IMG/VR virus record: IMGVR_UViG_2703718832_000003
Origin: a virus
Taxonomy: Duplodnaviria; Heunggongvirae; Uroviricota; Caudoviricetes
Length of the DNA stretch: 45,125 nt
Direction: 5' to 3' (one strand)
Numbering within the stretch: position 1 is the first letter of the stretch; every line of letters begins with the position of its first letter. The notes beneath the pieces are model-generated. The model was not told the DNA's origin. It did no database searches and saw only the letters and a program-made list of their open reading frames with translations. The translations under genes were made by a program, and so were the position numbers. Positions 2,835 to 20,342 of this stretch are shown in pieces.

Positions 2835-5741
2835 TTATGCCTGAGTACGCAGCGCTTCAAGGCGGCGCAGGTCGAAGTCGTTCAGTTCGTCGGTGTAGTC
2901 AGCAGTGATTGGCGCTGGCCATTCACCTGTGTCGAATCCGGTTGCGATATTGCGCATCGCTTTGCGGTACTCGAGCATACCCAGCTCCAGTAGTTCAGCG
3001 GATGCCTCGATGATGGCGATCCAGTGGTAGTTCTCGTCTTTGTTGACGAAAATCCAGAAGAACTGATCCAGCGCTGCGGTTTCGCAGTACATAGCCGCGC
3101 TCAGGTGATAATCACGTTCAATAATTTCCCGGTGTAGCCTGGCGCGCAGGCTTTCCTGCTTAACATTCCACATGCTGATGGTTTTCAGGTCTGCACCTAT
3201 ACGCACGCCATCCAGGTCGATCTCAAGGTCAGGGCGCACACGAACTTCCAAGCCCGTCTCCTCGTCAAAACCAAAGTAGCTCACCTCAACGGCTCGGCTA
3301 GGGTGGGTCAGCAGCATGCCGGCGGTCGGGTGTGCCAGAAGCGCTTTTTGAATATTCAGCGCGGTGCTCAGCTGCTGGCGGGTGACCAGCACTTTTCCTT
3401 CCGGGTTATCGCGCCAGGCATCCAGCAGTTCGTCGGCAAATACGGCATCTGGTTTGACTGCCTTCACGGCCTGGATCATGTCTGCTTTGGTACCGGACAC
3501 TTTCAGTGGTGCCGGTTTCTGTGCTTCCTGAGCCACAAGGTCAGGGTTGATGATTGCCAACTGCTCCAGCAGCGCGTCACGGCTGCCGCTGGTTTTAACC
3601 GGCGGCGGCAGGGTGGCGTTGTACTCTTTAATGCATGCCTTCATTGCCGTCGCCGTCTGCTTCTGGTCACCATCAATACGCTGGAAGTCAGCTGGCAGCG
3701 CCATATAGTTCTGTGCCGTTTCTTCCAGGTTAGCGCCAAGCGGAACCTGCGGCGGCAGGGTGGCGTTGTACTCTTCCAGTAACACCTTGATGTCGTCGGC
3801 AGACAGCAGCGCCGGCAGGCTGGCATTGTGCTCATCGATAAAGGCGCGCAGGGTCGCGGCCGTTGTGAATGCGCCTTCAGGGATCACCGGTTCAACGCTG
3901 AATTCTGCGTCCAGTAGTTCAGGCTGCAACGCCAGCGCATGCACCAAGTTGCCCATGTCCAGCACCGCTGAGCGCTCTTTGACGATGGTTTTCTCTACGT
4001 GGCGCGCATTGAAGTACATCAGCGAAACGCGCGCATCTTTCACCTGGGTTGAGCTGATGCCGTTGGCGGCGTGGTAAACCTCGTTTGGCAGCCCTTCATA
4101 GCGGCCTGGCTCGAAATAAGCGGGATAAACAACAGCTGGTTCGTCAGATTGCGCTTCTGGCTCGGTTTGTGCTGCAACTGGTTCGGTTTGGCTTACAGAA
4201 TCGCTATTTTTGGCGACAGAATCCGTATTCTGGTCTACATCGTCCTTCTGGCTGGTATCTGACTCTTCACCAGACTCCAGACTGCTTTCGCCTGGCTGTA
4301 CTTCATCACCAGCTTGTTTTTCATCACTGACAGTTTCTTGAACCTGCACATTGCTGGTGGTCTCCGTAGCCTTTTTCGTGCCATGAGTTGCTGAGTTCTG
4401 CAGCAAAGCCGTAACGTCGAATATTCCGTTGCCGACATTTTTAACCAGTTCTTGTTCGACTTTCTGCGGTTGTGCTGCCGCTTCCTCTGCGCGGCGGCGT
4501 GCTCCTTCTTCACGCACGCGTTGCAGGTTCTCTTCGTGAGTGCAGAAGGATTTGCGCGGAGACTCCTTACCTTCAGGTTGGGGAATTTCCTGTGCTGCGG
4601 GTTCAGCCTCATGCAACGGCAATAACTCGACCGCGGAATTGAACGCGGCTGTCATGGTCTGGTTAACAAATTCCAGGTGAGCGACAGGAGTTAAATGAAT
4701 ATTTTCCGGTGCGATACGTACCAGGTTAAAAATAGCCGTGCGGTTAACACCCAGAACGCCTGGCTGATTGCGCAGGATGTTGCTCCATGATTTCCATGGT
4801 TCTTCTTTTTTGGTCACGATTTCTTTAGCGCGACGAAGAATGCTGCCCGGGATCTCGAAGTGGTTGAAGTCCATAGGCAGAAGGGCACACGCAATCTCTA
4901 AATCGAGAGTGTCCAGTGTGTGGTGTGCGTCAGGTCCACGGTCAGTGACGTAACCGCCGTCGGCATTAGTGCCGGAATCAGTACGCTGCACACTACTGAT
5001 GCGATTACCGGCGGCCCATTCACGCGCCAGGATGCCACGGTCAATGTAATCAGTCGCCGCCCACATTCTGGTGAAACGGAGTACCAGCGCGAGTTCGTGA
5101 CGCTTGTCCTGGCTGAACACTTTGCGAATGGCATCGGTGTAGCGCCACAGGTCTTTGGTGTCGTAACCCTTCACTTCCGGGCAGTTCTCAGCAGCTAACA
5201 GCAAGTTCTGGACGTAACTGTTATCAGTGTCCATCTCCAGCGCGCCGATAGCTTCGTACTCTTCGTGGGTTACGTGGTGGCGCAGTTCGTCGGCGGTGAA
5301 CTGGGAAAGCAGTTGCTTACGAAACGGCATCTGCACTACCGGGTAGAGGGTTGAGTCGTCGTCGTGTTCGTCCAGCGTGATGCCAGCGGTTTCTGGCAGC
5401 GTTGACTCAGTAGTTATGTGACTATCAACGGTCTGAGCCGTTTTCTCGTCAGAGTTTTCAGCTGTGACTTTTGGCAGCCAGGTGCGCCCATCGTCCTGAA
5501 GCTCGTAGCGATCACACCAGGTAAAATCAACTTCACCTTCTTTCGGCAGGCCGTCGACAACTGGGAAATCAGTGCGAATCGGTTTGGCGTAGTCCTTACC
5601 CCGACCTGTTTCGATACCTGCATCTTCCAGCGCAACATCCAGCATCAGATTGGCGCGAGCCTCGGTTTTAGCAGTGAACCAGACCACTGCATCTTGCTTT
5701 CCGGATTTCTGAGTGGCTTTAACCACATTAAAGAATTCCAT
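2835..5741 (-). CDS. recE: RecE-like exonuclease VIII (long N-terminal region plus C-terminal nuclease domain)
   Basis: 968-aa ORF directly upstream of recT; long acidic/Ser-rich disordered middle region and conserved-looking C-terminal domain, as in Rac-type RecE. Contains an internal repeat encoding EYNATLPP twice. Confidence 0.65.
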   Translation of the reverse strand: MEFFNVVKATQKSGKQDAVVWFTAKTEARANLMLDVALEDAGIETGRGKDYAKPIRTDFPVVDGLPKEGEVDFTWCDRYELQDDGRTWLPKVTAENSDEKTAQTVDSHITTESTLPETAGITLDEHDDDSTLYPVVQMPFRKQLLSQFTADELRHHVTHEEYEAIGALEMDTDNSYVQNLLLAAENCPEVKGYDTKDLWRYTDAIRKVFSQDKRHELALVLRFTRMWAATDYIDRGILAREWAAGNRISSVQRTDSGTNADGGYVTDRGPDAHHTLDTLDLEIACALLPMDFNHFEIPGSILRRAKEIVTKKEEPWKSWSNILRNQPGVLGVNRTAIFNLVRIAPENIHLTPVAHLEFVNQTMTAAFNSAVELLPLHEAEPAAQEIPQPEGKESPRKSFCTHEENLQRVREEGARRRAEEAAAQPQKVEQELVKNVGNGIFDVTALLQNSATHGTKKATETTSNVQVQETVSDEKQAGDEVQPGESSLESGEESDTSQKDDVDQNTDSVAKNSDSVSQTEPVAAQTEPEAQSDEPAVVYPAYFEPGRYEGLPNEVYHAANGISSTQVKDARVSLMYFNARHVEKTIVKERSAVLDMGNLVHALALQPELLDAEFSVEPVIPEGAFTTAATLRAFIDEHNASLPALLSADDIKVLLEEYNATLPPQVPLGANLEETAQNYMALPADFQRIDGDQKQTATAMKACIKEYNATLPPPVKTSGSRDALLEQLAIINPDLVAQEAQKPAPLKVSGTKADMIQAVKAVKPDAVFADELLDAWRDNPEGKVLVTRQQLSTALNIQKALLAHPTAGMLLTHPSRAVEVSYFGFDEETGLEVRVRPDLEIDLDGVRIGADLKTISMWNVKQESLRARLHREIIERDYHLSAAMYCETAALDQFFWIFVNKDENYHWIAIIEASAELLELGMLEYRKAMRNIATGFDTGEWPAPITADYTDELNDFDLRRLEALRTQA

Positions 5742-5881
5742 GTGAGATCCTCATTTTTGGGTGTTAGAATCCCCGGACCATTGATAGCGCCCATTGGGTT
5801 AACTTTGGTTTTAATGTTGTTTCCGGTGTAACTTTGGTCGGTGAGGCCGGACATGGCGGGCCCACTTCGGTGGGCTTTCGC

Positions 5882-17743: not shown

Positions 17744-18508
17744 ATGAACCTTGAAAACACAGTGAAATACCACTTCGCGAAGTCAACGATGATTAGCGAC
17801 TCTCCACGCGCGACAGCATCTGACTCATTAACCGGCACTGACATTATGGCGGCGATCGGAATGACACAGAGCCGTGCTGCTCTCGGGTTCAGTGCATTCC
17901 TAGGAAAGATGGATATCAGTGATTACGATCGCGAGCGAGCGATTGATTTGCTGACAAAATATGCAATTGAGCACTGCGATAAGGTTGCTGCCTTACGCAA
18001 GCTTGAGAGTGATGTTAAGCCAAAGGTAATGCAAGTTCTCGCAACTTTCGCCTTTGCTGATTACTCCCGGAGTGCGGCCAGCACCAGAACGTGCGACTGC
18101 TGCCATGGAAATAAGTTTGTCGAAGCTGAAGTAATGACGATGAAGCATATCGGACAGCCACACCTTAGCGAAAAAAGAGAGATGGTTAAGGTGCTTTGCC
18201 ACAAATGCAAAGGGAAGGGTGCTCTGACCAACGCATGCCAGTGCAATGGCAAAGGAACAGTATTAGACAAAGAGAAAACTATTCTACAGCGCGGCGTTCC
18301 TGCATATAAAACCTGTACGCGCTGCAATGGGCGTGGTTATGCCAGATTGCTACCTGATAGCGTCCGTAAATACATCTGCGTAACGGTGATGGATATACCT
18401 GAAACCACGTGGCGCAGGTCTTACAAGGATTTTTTCGAAAGTCTGGTAGGTGAGTGCATCAAGCAGGAAGAGTACGCAAACCAGATGTTGAACAAAGTCA
18501 CGCGATAG
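17744..18508 (+). CDS. Q: Late-gene antiterminator Q
   Basis: 254-aa ORF immediately upstream of a promoter-terminator pair and the lysis genes; Cys-rich zinc-binding region (CDCCHGNKF...CHKCKGKG...CQCNGKG...CTRCNGRG). Confidence 0.7.
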   Translation: MNLENTVKYHFAKSTMISDSPRATASDSLTGTDIMAAIGMTQSRAALGFSAFLGKMDISDYDRERAIDLLTKYAIEHCDKVAALRKLESDVKPKVMQVLATFAFADYSRSAASTRTCDCCHGNKFVEAEVMTMKHIGQPHLSEKREMVKVLCHKCKGKGALTNACQCNGKGTVLDKEKTILQRGVPAYKTCTRCNGRGYARLLPDSVRKYICVTVMDIPETTWRRSYKDFFESLVGECIKQEEYANQMLNKVTR

Positions 18509-18550: not shown

Positions 18551-18579
18551 TTTACAAAGTGGCGATTTTTGTTTAATCT
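18551..18579 (+). promoter_or_regulatory. PR'-like late promoter (TTTACA-17-TAATCT)
   Basis: -35 TTTACA at 18551-18556, 17-nt spacer, -10 TAATCT at 18574-18579; 40 nt downstream of the Q stop and just upstream of a strong terminator. Confidence 0.4.
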
Positions 18580-18612
18580 CGATTCTAACGATGGGTTACT
18601 GACTTCGTTTCA

Positions 18613-18648
18613 AGCCCCGCGGATAACACCGTGGGGCTTTTGCGTTTC
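18613..18648 (+). terminator. tR'-like intrinsic terminator
   Basis: 10-bp stem AGCCCCGCGG / CCGTGGGGCT (one G-U pair) with 6-nt loop, followed by TTTGCGTTTC. Confidence 0.55.
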
Positions 18649-18894
18649 TGGAGGGTAAGAAAATGCACGGGTAGAACGGACAGACCGCAGTCGAAAGGCA
18701 CTGCAGCAGTCATGATGCTGCCCCGAGTCGCGTAATGGCGAGCCTGTGTAGTGATGGGTAAGGGTTCATAGATCAAAATAAGCTCCGGTAAAGCAGCGTG
18801 AATGCCAGATACGCACCGGTTATCAGCGGCGATGACGCGACAGCACCTCAAGGGCATGAGCGTGGCCACTCCGGGAAGTGGCAAAGAATTTATA

Positions 18895-18920
18895 GCCTCG
18901 CTTATGCGGGGCTTTTCTAT
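18895..18920 (+). terminator. Intrinsic terminator (GCCTCGC-TTAT-GCGGGGC-TTTT), copy 1
   Basis: 7-bp stem with one G-U pair, 4-nt loop, T-run; near-identical copy at 21000-21025. Confidence 0.5.
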
Positions 18921-19031
18921 TTCAGGCCTCACGGGAATCATCCGCTACGTGCTTTGTTGATAAATCCAGCCCGTGAAGCCTGACCCTTTTCATACACACA
19001 CAGCGCCATCCGAAGAATCGGAGGTGAGGCT

Positions 19032-19310
19032 ATGACCAGAATGAGCACCATTTACAGCAGACTTTCATATGGAACAGGCACCACGCTGACCGGCTGCGGT
19101 GTATCAGCGAAGGCATATGCCGAAACAGCAAAAACAGCAAAAGAGGTGTCCTGGATGTTGGCCGACAGAATTGCAGGGTTAAGCCTGAGCGACTGGGCAA
19201 TTATTGTCGGTATCGCATGCACGGTAATCACCTGTGCAGTGAACTGGTATTTCCGCTGGAAAGAACGGGAGGATCGGCGCAATGGCTATGTCTCTAAAGC
19301 TGAAGAATAA
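19032..19310 (+). CDS. Holin
   Basis: 92-aa ORF with GGAGGTG RBS; hydrophobic TM segment LSDWAIIVGIACTVITCAVNWYF and charged C-terminus; first gene of the lysis cassette. Confidence 0.6.
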   Translation: MTRMSTIYSRLSYGTGTTLTGCGVSAKAYAETAKTAKEVSWMLADRIAGLSLSDWAIIVGIACTVITCAVNWYFRWKEREDRRNGYVSKAEE

Positions 19311-19830
19311 ATTGAGCGCAGCGGTCGTTGGTTTGATTCTTGCCGGGGCTTCCGCACCCGTGATTCTCGATCAGTTTCTGGATGAGAAAGAGGGTAACAG
19401 CTTGACAGCATATCGCGACGGCGGCGGACTCTGGACCATTTGCCGTGGTGCAACAATGGTTGATGGCAAGCCAGTAGTACAGGGCATGAAGCTGTCAGCT
19501 GAGAAATGCGCCCAGGTAAACGCCATTGAACGCGACAAGGCGCTGGCGTGGGTTGACCGAAATATCAAAGTACCACTGACCGAACCACAGAAAGCGGGTA
19601 TCGCTTCTTTCTGCCCGTATAACATCGGCCCCGGTAAATGCTTCCCATCGACCTTCTATAAGCGCATCAACGCAGGTGACCGCATCGGTGCATGCGAGGC
19701 AATCCGCTGGTGGATTAAAGACGGTGGCCGTGATTGTCGTCTAACCAAAGGCCAGAAGAATGGCTGCTATGGTCAGGTTGAGCGACGGGACCAGGAAAGC
19801 GCGCTGGCGTGCTGGGGGTTAGACCAATGA
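19282..19830 (+). CDS. SAR endolysin (phage lysozyme with N-terminal signal-anchor-release domain)
   Basis: 182-aa ORF; N-terminal weakly hydrophobic Gly/Ala-rich segment LSAAVVGLILAGASAPV followed by a lysozyme-like domain. Confidence 0.75.
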   Translation: MAMSLKLKNKLSAAVVGLILAGASAPVILDQFLDEKEGNSLTAYRDGGGLWTICRGATMVDGKPVVQGMKLSAEKCAQVNAIERDKALAWVDRNIKVPLTEPQKAGIASFCPYNIGPGKCFPSTFYKRINAGDRIGACEAIRWWIKDGGRDCRLTKGQKNGCYGQVERRDQESALACWGLDQ

Positions 19831-20342
19831 AAATTAATCCGGGTCTTATAGGCGTTGTTGTTATTGCTGTCCTTTCGGTCGCTCTCGCTAAGAGTTGCTC
19901 CAACGCCAGTCGCCTTCAGAGCGATAACGACGTTCTGCGAAGTGACAACTCTATGCAGGGGCAGGTGATCGCCACCCAGGCATTCAACTTCAATCGATTC
20001 AATCAGGTTGCAGAACATGCCAACAGGCTAAACTCCCTGATCGACACCAGCACCGAAGAAACTGTAATCGAATACCGGGAGATTCTCCGCCGTGAAAAAA
20101 CCTGTGATCTGCCTGTTCCTGCTGACATTGCTGGTGGGCTGCTCGAATACGCGTACCGTTTACGTTCCAGCGCAATGCACGCCGATACCGACGGACCTGA
20201 CGCAGCCGATGATAGTACCGCTGCCGCCGGCTCAATAACGTACTGCCAGGCTGTACTCTGGATTAAGCCGCTGCTGGCCGTGATTGAAAAGGGCAATAAC
20301 AATTTCGCTGGAATTCGTCAAATAGAGAGCGAGCGTCAATAG
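19827..20342 (+). CDS. Rz-like inner-membrane spanin (i-spanin)
   Basis: ATG at 19827 in frame with track ORF 19809-20342; N-terminal TM helix LIGVVVIAVLSVALA, coiled-coil body; Rz1 embedded in the +1 frame. Confidence 0.65.
   Translation: MKINPGLIGVVVIAVLSVALAKSCSNASRLQSDNDVLRSDNSMQGQVIATQAFNFNRFNQVAEHANRLNSLIDTSTEETVIEYREILRREKTCDLPVPADIAGGLLEYAYRLRSSAMHADTDGPDAADDSTAAAGSITYCQAVLWIKPLLAVIEKGNNNFAGIRQIESERQ
20092..20238 (+). CDS. Rz1-like outer-membrane lipoprotein spanin (o-spanin), embedded in Rz
   Basis: Not in the track (48 aa). GTG start with GGGAG RBS; VKKPVICLFLLTLLVGCSNTRTVYVPAQCTPIPTDLTQPMIVPLPPAQ has a lipobox (LLVGC) and Pro-rich mature region. Confidence 0.6.
   Translation: MKKPVICLFLLTLLVGCSNTRTVYVPAQCTPIPTDLTQPMIVPLPPAQ

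Follow-up and report, generated by a model that had tools for sequence, protein, structure and literature searches.

Between the antiterminator gene Q and the holin gene of a lambdoid (pro)phage represented by the IMG/VR record IMGVR_UViG_2703718832_000003 (a stretch of 45,125 nucleotides, hereafter the window), we have identified a segment (positions 18650-18881, plus strand) that is conserved as an RNA and that encodes no protein. On balance, we lean towards regarding this segment as one copy of a portable RNA cassette, not described before, that is carried by lambdoid (pro)phages of the Enterobacterales, and we are highly confident that its relatives form a real family of structured RNAs with a functional mini open reading frame (mini-ORF) at their start. 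Judged from its sequences, the family appears to be new, widespread and structurally well supported, with an unusual 5' module for the loading of ribosomes, and its functional unit appears to extend from a Shine-Dalgarno (SD) sequence to a terminal hairpin, P9.

The evidence for a folded RNA comes from covariation, whose analysis in related phages had been suggested in an initial description of the region (the first-pass annotation). In an alignment of 95 sequences, RNAalifold predicts 30 base pairs, 17 of which show compensatory double changes. A manually built model with 11 helices and 44 pairs accounts for 96.2% of the aligned cells as paired, compared to 27-38% if the partners are slid by one to three columns. 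Double changes are found in 23 of the 44 pairs and in 197 cells, compared to 11.5 pairs and 41 cells in shuffles, and the observed values were reached in 0 of 500 shuffles, a control that ignores the relatedness between sequences. The same conclusion is favoured by the control with slid partners and by the many independent pair types. Both the RNAalifold prediction and the manual model contain many G·U but few A·C pairs, which indicates that the RNA is read from the plus strand, the same strand as the surrounding operon. A frame without stop codon extends across the element in only 2 of 104 unique copies in forward and in 20 of 104 in reverse direction, and insertions and deletions of 1, 9 and 17 nucleotides (nt) within the element break the frame. 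A 118-residue ORF on the reverse strand of the window and other ORFs were ruled out as genes by this census of stop codons.

The second characteristic of the family is found at its 5' edge, where the block starts with the sequence GGAGGG (18650-18655) followed by ATG-CAC-GGG-TAG (18663-18674), both absent from the first-pass annotation. The latter had described the block as untranslated, which holds with respect to any long ORF but not in light of a conserved mini-ORF of one to three codons that is preceded by a strong ribosome-binding site. Of the 138 unique elements collected in all scans, divergent subfamilies included, 118 contain an SD-like purine run about 5-10 nt ahead of a start codon (ATG in 112 and TTG in 6 cases), which in 115 of the 118 is located 12-13 nt upstream of the first helix, P1. 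The mini-ORF comprises one to three codons in 112 of these 118 elements, with three codons in 75 of them, and ends with TAA (78), TAG (27) or TGA (13). Fifteen copies consist of a bare start followed by a stop. Most of the 20 elements that were not scored contain either a weaker SD or ATC or ATA at the position of the start codon. There is no conservation of the peptide (MKH, MKQ, MVH, MHQ, MNQ, M and others), the stop moves between codons 2, 3 and 4, and the sequence 5' of the SD is unrelated between genomic contexts. Of all features of the cassette, the mini-ORF depends least on the context. SD, start codon and early stop are thus retained but neither the peptide nor the upstream sequence, as one would anticipate if selection acted on the loading and prompt release of a ribosome and not on a peptide or on a helix of the RNA.

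Relatives of the element are broadly distributed. In BLAST searches, its core (about 18682-18876) was found at 77-87% identity in phage records, almost always at locations without annotated feature, including the E. coli phages mEp213, vB_EcoS-733R5 and two Stx2c-converting phages and, outside of E. coli, the Klebsiella phages RothC and RothD, the Hafnia phage yong1 and the Providencia phage PSTCR7lys. Among 5426 complete E. coli genomes, 122 (about 2%) contain it, in every case on the chromosome, and in E. coli KL53 and H5 the stretch 18640-18930 is 100% identical to that of the window. Further sequences were gathered with two exact motifs, an 18-mer (18813-18830) matched in at least 120 IMG/VR contigs and a second motif (18847-18862) matched in at least 120 viral contigs, which added more divergent subfamilies. 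In a scan of GTDB with one genome per species, we considered the first 120 matches to the 18-mer and accepted as genuine those that also contain the motif of helix P8, which was the case for 30 copies, with the remaining 90 being chance matches to the 18-mer. All counts from viral contigs and GTDB are lower bounds. The family thus extends to prophages of at least 12 genera of Enterobacterales, as the genome labels of 29 of these 30 copies all belong to this order: Kluyvera, Citrobacter, Pseudocitrobacter, Enterobacter, Leclercia, Yokenella, Scandinavium, Silvania, Hafnia, Morganella, Xenorhabdus, Ewingella and Escherichia. The one other copy (L188) has a typical enterobacterial-type sequence in a contig labelled as the Firmicute Vagococcus sp. 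WN89Y and most likely reflects contamination or mis-binning instead of a true host range. The window itself contains a single copy (nhmmer, 18646-18887, E = 1e-72). The first-pass annotation had allowed for the region being poorly conserved in close relatives; the block is instead clearly conserved in phages, viral contigs and E. coli genomes.

The coordinates of the helices and of surrounding features are listed in Table 1. In the hairpin P3, compensatory double changes are found in all six pairs (e.g. A-U 62 / C-G 17 / U-A 5), and in P3a, which closes the three-way junction, the pair 18724:18762 (C-G 62 / U-A 27) ranks second in an independent mutual-information analysis, a scan that otherwise mostly recovered known helices and linkage between sequence subtypes. 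In P6, whose apical loop contains the sequence GCCA, the outer helix includes a pair with C-G 86 / U-A 4 and the inner pairs show three to six double changes each. P2 is variable and was deleted in one subtype. In total, about 45 unpaired bases of the fold are invariant, among them the loop AGGGCA of P8. The invariance of the segment J6/7 is in part an artefact, because 18813-18830 served as search pattern, and J6/7 is exchanged for another sequence in divergent subfamilies. The latter, found in viral contigs (L252, L253, L256, L259, L271 and L280, and L257, L260, L270 and L294), retain the SD and mini-ORF, P1-P6, P8 and P9, and in place of the invariant J6/7-P7 segment have one of two kinds of longer insert (about 35 nt). 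In one further copy (L173, Escherichia sp. ESNIH1, about 1000-1250), P1-P3 are missing and the 5' third is deleted straight after the start codon, apparently representing a decayed cassette in a prophage remnant.

Table 1. Features of the cassette and its surroundings in the window.
Feature	Position	Strand	Description
Antiterminator Q gene	17744-18508	+	254 aa; Pfam PF03589 (Antiterm), E = 8.4e-44
PR'-type late promoter	18551-18556 (-35); 18574-18579 (-10)	+	TTTACA, 17-nt spacer, TAATCT
Predicted transcript start and sigma70-dependent pause/Q-loading segment	18587-18598	+	AACGATGGGTTA; from comparison with lambda
tR' intrinsic terminator	18612-18649	+	Stem 18612-18639, 11 bp, 8 G-C, then TTGCGTTTCT (T-tract to 18649)
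Shine-Dalgarno sequence	18650-18655	+	GGAGGG; 5' edge of the conserved cassette
Mini-ORF	18663-18674	+	ATG CAC GGG TAG (Met-His-Gly-stop), 7 nt after GGAGGG
P1 hairpin	18676-79 : 18685-88	+	Loop ACAGA; covariation model
P2 hairpin	18690-92 : 18697-99	+	GAAA loop; GC/CG/UA/AU swaps
P3 hairpin	18703-18721	+	6 bp; conserved loop GUCAUGA
Three-way junction	18722-18764	+	P3a (18722-24 : 18762-64) closes around P4 and P5
P4	18728-31 : 18738-41	+	Pair G-C 67 / U-A 14 / C-G 7
P5	18743-46 : 18755-58	+	Pair U-G 52 / A-U 23 / G-C 14
A-rich linker	18765-18784	+	Last 3 nt GCU (18782-84)
P6	18785-18819	+	Outer CCGG/CCGG; conserved 7-nt internal loop UAAAGCA; inner GCGUG/UACGC; loop AAUGCCAGA
J6/7	18820-18836	+	UUAUCAGCGGCGAUGAC; nearly invariant, unpaired
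P7	18837-39 : 18861-63	+	Encloses P8; G-C 51 / G-U 35
P8 hairpin	18847-60	+	CUCA-AGGGCA-UGAG; pair U-A 76 / U-G 9 / C-G 5
P9 hairpin	18866-18881	+	CCAC/GUGG; 3' edge of the cassette; C-G 83 / U-A 6 and C-G 88 / U-A 2
Second intrinsic terminator	18894-18923	+	Stem 18894-18913, 8 pairs, 6 G-C, then TTTTCTATTT, T-tract to 18923
Holin gene	19032-19310	+	Pfam PF16080/PF04971
Endolysin (lysozyme) gene	19282-19830		Downstream of holin; Pfam PF00959

Several additional contacts were considered. The AGU in the loop of P5 (18750-52) may pair with the GCU at the end of the A-rich linker to form a pseudoknot, for which we find the matched variants AGU:GCU, GGU:GCC, AAC:GUU, UAC:GUA, CAUAC:GUAUG and CACAC:GUGUG; in a permutation test this pairing was not separable from chance (3.70 vs 3.63 +/- 0.06) and column counts were not significant. 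Pairing is also compatible between the P3 loop and UUAU (18820-23) and between the loops GCC (18804-06) and GGC (18853-55), with variation that is either one-sided or lacking. P1 as a boxB-like N site, pairing of the SD with the loop of P9 and an alternative helix between P1 and J6/7 were each inspected by eye and found no consistent support.

The cassette recurs at three sites inside lytic operons, always in the same orientation as local transcription. At the first, which is the one of the window, a Q gene and a terminator resembling tR' come immediately before it; the junction of a U-tract with GGAGG on the 5' side recurs in about 29 of 106 unique copies. The second site, found in 733R5, is located after the lysis genes Rz/Rz1 and before the small terminase, and the third in the PL operon past cI or rexAB, shortly before a gene for an arginine-rich protein resembling N, as seen in yong1, PSTCR7lys and many viral contigs. 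The cassette of mEp213 is preceded by four ORFs. Downstream genes vary between phages and include holin, N, terminase, tRNAs and small ORFs. Clustering of all flanking ORFs revealed no consistently adjacent protein family but only the genes of the respective context (Q, cI, N-like, Rz/Rz1, endolysin, terminase).

These comparisons also define the boundaries of the element. Directly 3' of P9, the sequence splits into context-specific classes, and a terminator is found within about 90 nt of this helix in only 21 of 105 unique copies, in 17 of the 21 within about 30 nt, which comprises all copies of the window type. The flank that the window has in common with the phages HK225 and mEp237 begins at 18906, inside the second terminator. 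Since few copies contain a terminator 3' of P9 and the HK225/mEp237 flank starts within it, both terminators are part of the insertion slot and not of the RNA family. The first-pass annotation had drawn a unit bounded by the two terminators, which has to be revised to 18650-18881. In HK225, mEp237 and Louie, the tR' side and the terminator-to-holin side (compared over 18906-19040) are 95-98% identical to the window, and the insert between the terminators is a different one, annotated as 'hypothetical protein' in HK225; with shared flanks and a different insert, the gap between the terminators behaves as a slot for the exchange of cargo. Neither a promoter nor a terminator belonging to the cassette itself is conserved or visible. 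In the absence of an own promoter, expression should depend on lytic transcription modified by N or Q or, in the window, on leakage through tR'.

Individual carriers show further peculiarities. mEp213 contains two different annotated N antiterminator genes in a single PL operon (1825-2157 and 3310-3582), and its cassette (about 2975-3200) is located in an unannotated gap of 470 nt just 5' of the second N gene, an arrangement that suggests a recombination join. In RothC (annotated features at 2450-2786, 2823-2982 and 3123-3662), two reverse-strand 'hypothetical proteins' that are probably spurious are annotated across the cassette, which is followed by tRNA-Ile, tRNA-Arg, an HNH homing endonuclease and then the holin. 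In yong1, a PL-like promoter (2339-2367) among operator-like repeats and a boxA-like sequence GCTCTTTAA (2414-2422) are located upstream of the cassette, and a boxB-like hairpin (2736-2750, loop GGCTGA) between the cassette and the N-like gene. The stem of this hairpin is compensatorily different in contig L096 (GAGCA/TGCTC).

In the window, the cassette is preceded by transcription signals of the lambda type. The Q ORF, which also shows a weak Pfam match to the DnaJ CXXCXGXG zinc finger, ends 43 nt ahead of the late promoter. The first-pass annotation had placed this promoter, both terminators and an ORF-poor block between them, and all of these were found at the positions it gave, with no plus-strand ORF spanning 18650-18893, leaving about 245 nt without a long ORF. 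Its description of the promoter as near-consensus was too generous, as the -35 hexamer matches the consensus in five of six positions and the -10 hexamer in only three (8/12 overall), and a generic scan for consensus promoters did not call the site, which fell below threshold. Instead, the hexamers align one-for-one with those of lambda PR' (TTGACT-17-TAAATT), and the segment AACGATGGGTTA is identical in 12 of 12 positions to the initially transcribed, pause-inducing region of lambda just past the PR' -10. The role of this lambda region in pausing and the loading of Q is well established. With the aligned hexamers, the identical initial segment and the Q stop codon located 43 nt upstream, we accept the site as a PR' homologue with a predicted transcription start near 18587. 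In line with the proposal of a very short 6S-like transcript in the first-pass annotation, the PR'-tR' unit is predicted to produce a terminated transcript of about 60 nt. A scan of 2.5 kb found three terminator-like sites, a number not above that in shuffles (mean 2.5), and the case for the two terminators thus rests on their strength, position and conservation.

Elsewhere in the window, an Rz-like ORF of 177 residues without Pfam match (19809-20342, plus strand) contains in its +1 frame an ORF of 48 residues (20092-20238, plus strand) that begins with MKKPVICLFLLTLLVGC and looks like an Rz1-type lipoprotein (o-spanin) nested in an i-spanin gene. At 5783-5880 (plus strand), the window matches the Rfam family isrB, an Hfq-binding small RNA (sRNA; RF01386), with 38.2 bits compared to a gathering threshold of 35 (E = 0.002), the sole match at gathering level in the whole window.

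How might such an RNA act? We tentatively propose a mechanism in which the cassette acts in trans after docking of a ribosome, a scheme that we regard as possible rather than probable. In this phage, the RNA would be made by Q-modified polymerase reading through tR', whereas any transcript that leaks past tR' in a lysogen would be terminated at 18923. A ribosome would load at the 5' edge of the cassette, where, as judged from the geometry, it would abut P1 during initiation and transiently melt this helix during termination, and it would then depart, as the stop codon of the mini-ORF comes ahead of the folded body. Loading could protect the RNA as a cap, position it and perhaps gate its folding, and the compact body might subsequently bind a host component, most plausibly one connected with translation or with a defence that targets translation, to the benefit of lytic growth. 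The more specific version of a ribosome-gated RNA whose fold serves as aptamer, decoy or ribozyme, directed at the translation machinery or at a defence that senses or targets translation, is still more speculative; if true, it would constitute a class of phage RNA effectors without known precedent.

A number of points weigh against this proposal and the family model on which it builds. Every functional step is inferred, and the conserved SD-AUG could in principle serve the stability of the RNA alone. The promoter-less placement within operons suits a purely cis-acting role as stabiliser, insulator or antitermination element equally well. Folding of the single sequence is no more stable than that of shuffles on either strand (z = -0.20 and -0.76), and the apparent invariance of 18813-18830 and 18847-18862 is inflated because both are search motifs. 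Divergent copies with altered UUAU show no compensation, which leaves the tertiary pairings of the P3 loop and of GCC with GGC unproven, and the shuffle control takes no account of how closely the sequences are related.

Among the alternatives, we consider it unlikely, although less so than the others, that the cassette is a cis-acting transcription element, either put-like or a Rho antagonist, whose nascent fold acts on its own polymerase or blocks Rho so that long lytic transcripts are sustained. Its sense orientation inside antiterminated operons without own promoter would fit, as would the fact that two of the three sites lie close to where a PL or PR' transcript begins, the region that also houses nut, put and qut signals, and the location of the window copy just ahead of the second terminator. 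Yet carriers already encode Q and N-like proteins, the remaining site is found in mid-operon past the lysis genes, the mEp213 cassette follows after four ORFs, and a blastn 'distant' search among phages gave no match outside the cassette family. Moreover, put-type action requires neither ribosome-binding site nor mini-ORF, and translation normally interferes with RNA signals of the nut type. We find it improbable that the element is a leader-peptide attenuator or a riboswitch, where the position of the ribosome or a ligand would set terminator formation and thus the expression of downstream genes, in the window those for lysis. The order of short ORF, RNA structure, terminator and genes is a classic layout and the density of invariant unpaired bases is reminiscent of riboswitches, but the scarcity of terminators 3' of P9 (21/105) leaves the family without a conserved expression platform, there is no consistent class of downstream genes, the fold is located downstream of the ribosome-binding site instead of upstream of an expression platform, and no covariation for alternative pairing was detected in the mutual-information scan. 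In addition, Q-modified polymerase ignores intrinsic terminators.

A similarly small probability is assigned to a bar-like toxic minigene, where repeated translation of one to three codons would set free peptidyl-tRNA or use up initiation and termination factors and so help shut off host translation, and where the folded body would merely prolong the life of the transcript. The strong SD, the AUG followed by one or two sense codons and a stop, and the location of copies in the PL operon all match the bar minigenes of lambda, and the independence of the mini-ORF from its context is consistent with such a role. Conversely, a fold with 11 covarying helices and about 45 unpaired positions that do not vary far exceeds the needs of a stabiliser, abundant tRNAs read the final sense codons (His, Gln, Lys, Asn, Val), which are not conserved, and the 15 bare start-stop copies are at odds with it. 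The proposal of a small RNA in the first-pass annotation is borne out in so far as the block contains a conserved RNA, whose complex fold of 11 helices with invariant unpaired bases is unlike that of a base-pairing sRNA. We regard a terminator-bounded, Hfq-dependent base-pairing sRNA of the PasD, STnc100, AgvB or AsxR type as very improbable, despite the position of the cassette in the slot that also houses the Pas sRNAs, the A/U-rich stretch and terminator with U-tail at the end of the window copy, and a weak match to the STnc100 model (18804-18924). The latter reaches only 16.5 bits compared to a gathering threshold of 47 and aligns the terminator alone, most family members lack this terminator, no single-stranded 'seed' is evident, and bases are conserved in the way typical of a folded RNA. 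Finally, it appears hardly credible that the block is a small protein gene that escaped notice on one strand or the other, or a site acting at the level of DNA in recombination, packaging or as operator: reverse-strand 'hypothetical proteins' are annotated in RothC and some E. coli genomes and the window contains the 118-residue reverse ORF, but stops interrupt all three reverse frames in 84 of 104 copies and all forward frames in 102 of 104, indels break the frame, and substitutions preserve base pairs including strand-specific G·U, a signature of RNA and neither of protein nor of duplex DNA.

Whichever mechanism applies, an RNA of about 230 nt has stayed unannotated in named phages such as mEp213, the Stx2c converters and RothC, although lambdoid coliphages are among the best-studied of all genomes. 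If it acts on ribosomes or host defence, it would represent a new kind of RNA-made weapon in the conflict between phage and host; were its action in cis, the antitermination circuits of N and Q, including those of Shiga-toxin phages, would gain a new tier. Under either reading, in trans or in cis, the cassette is directly accessible to standard lambda genetics, and its entry into RNA family databases would put an end to spurious 'hypothetical protein' calls across it.

We compared the cassette to known RNAs. Searches with the 4227 families of Rfam 15, carried out at the gathering threshold and at E <= 10 with the window and eight divergent loci, gave no relevant match to 18650-18881 or to the eight divergent relatives, even at E = 10. 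Matches elsewhere concern a tRNA in the divergent locus L271 and isrB in the window, and those to STnc100, Leu-leader, RsmY and CRISPR repeats were dismissed as noise from terminators or hairpins. In case of STnc100, 133 model positions are skipped; this match deserves mention as STnc100, PasD and other sRNAs share the Q-to-holin slot. ARAGORN detected no tRNA or tmRNA gene in the window. Short identities to E. coli 4.5S, M1 and 23S RNA fall on variable positions and were treated as chance. When 50,697 phage records were searched with blastn 'distant', all matches were members of the cassette family, and in the literature, recent papers on the discovery of non-coding RNAs included, we found no description of an equivalent RNA. 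The combination of an SD and an ORF of one to three codons at fixed distance from a fold of 11 helices matches no RNA class that we found.

With respect to its location, the cassette resembles the sRNAs PasA/C/D, STnc100, AgvB and AsxR, which occupy the intergenic slot between Q and the lysis genes in other prophages (bioRxiv 10.64898/2026.05.13.724894) and mark it as a hot spot for RNA cargo. Whereas these are short, Hfq-dependent and base-pairing RNAs with own terminators, the cassette is a multi-helix fold that fails the STnc100 model. Lambda 6S and StxS (PMC7547250), short transcripts that lambdoid and Stx phages make from PR'-tR', share with 18551-18649 the Q gene, a constitutive late promoter with the start region AACGATGGGTTA and an immediate intrinsic terminator. 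With 194 nt, lambda 6S is longer than the PR'-tR' unit of the window, which comprises only about 60 nt upstream of the cassette, and the structured RNA described here lies past tR' and is unrelated in sequence to 6S/StxS. As in the large phage-associated RNAs ROOL and GOLLD (PMC12286853), we find a complex, covariation-supported (pro)phage RNA that is sometimes located beside tRNA genes, as in RothC. ROOL and GOLLD, however, span 500-800 nt, are found in other bacterial phyla, are contained in Rfam and have no obligatory mini-ORF, whereas the cassette measures about 230 nt, is confined to Enterobacterales and has no Rfam match.

The put sites of HK022 are likewise structured, protein-independent RNAs in sense orientation inside early and late lambdoid operons and near promoters. 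They differ by their length of about 70 nt, their two stem-loops and the lack of a ribosome-binding site, and carriers of the cassette possess N and Q; no sequence relationship to put was detectable in the blastn 'distant' search, a comparison at the level of sequence. The bar minigenes of lambda, located in the PL operon, consist of an SD, AUG, AUA and a stop. Their general layout of SD, AUG, one or two sense codons and stop is also that of the window sequence GGAGGG-N7-ATG CAC GGG TAG, and in both cases a strong ribosome-binding site with an ORF of one to three codons is placed on lytic transcripts of lambdoid phages (for background on bar see PMC2490762). Whereas bar minigenes stand alone, the minigene of the cassette uses other codons and is fused at fixed distance to a covarying fold of about 200 nt.

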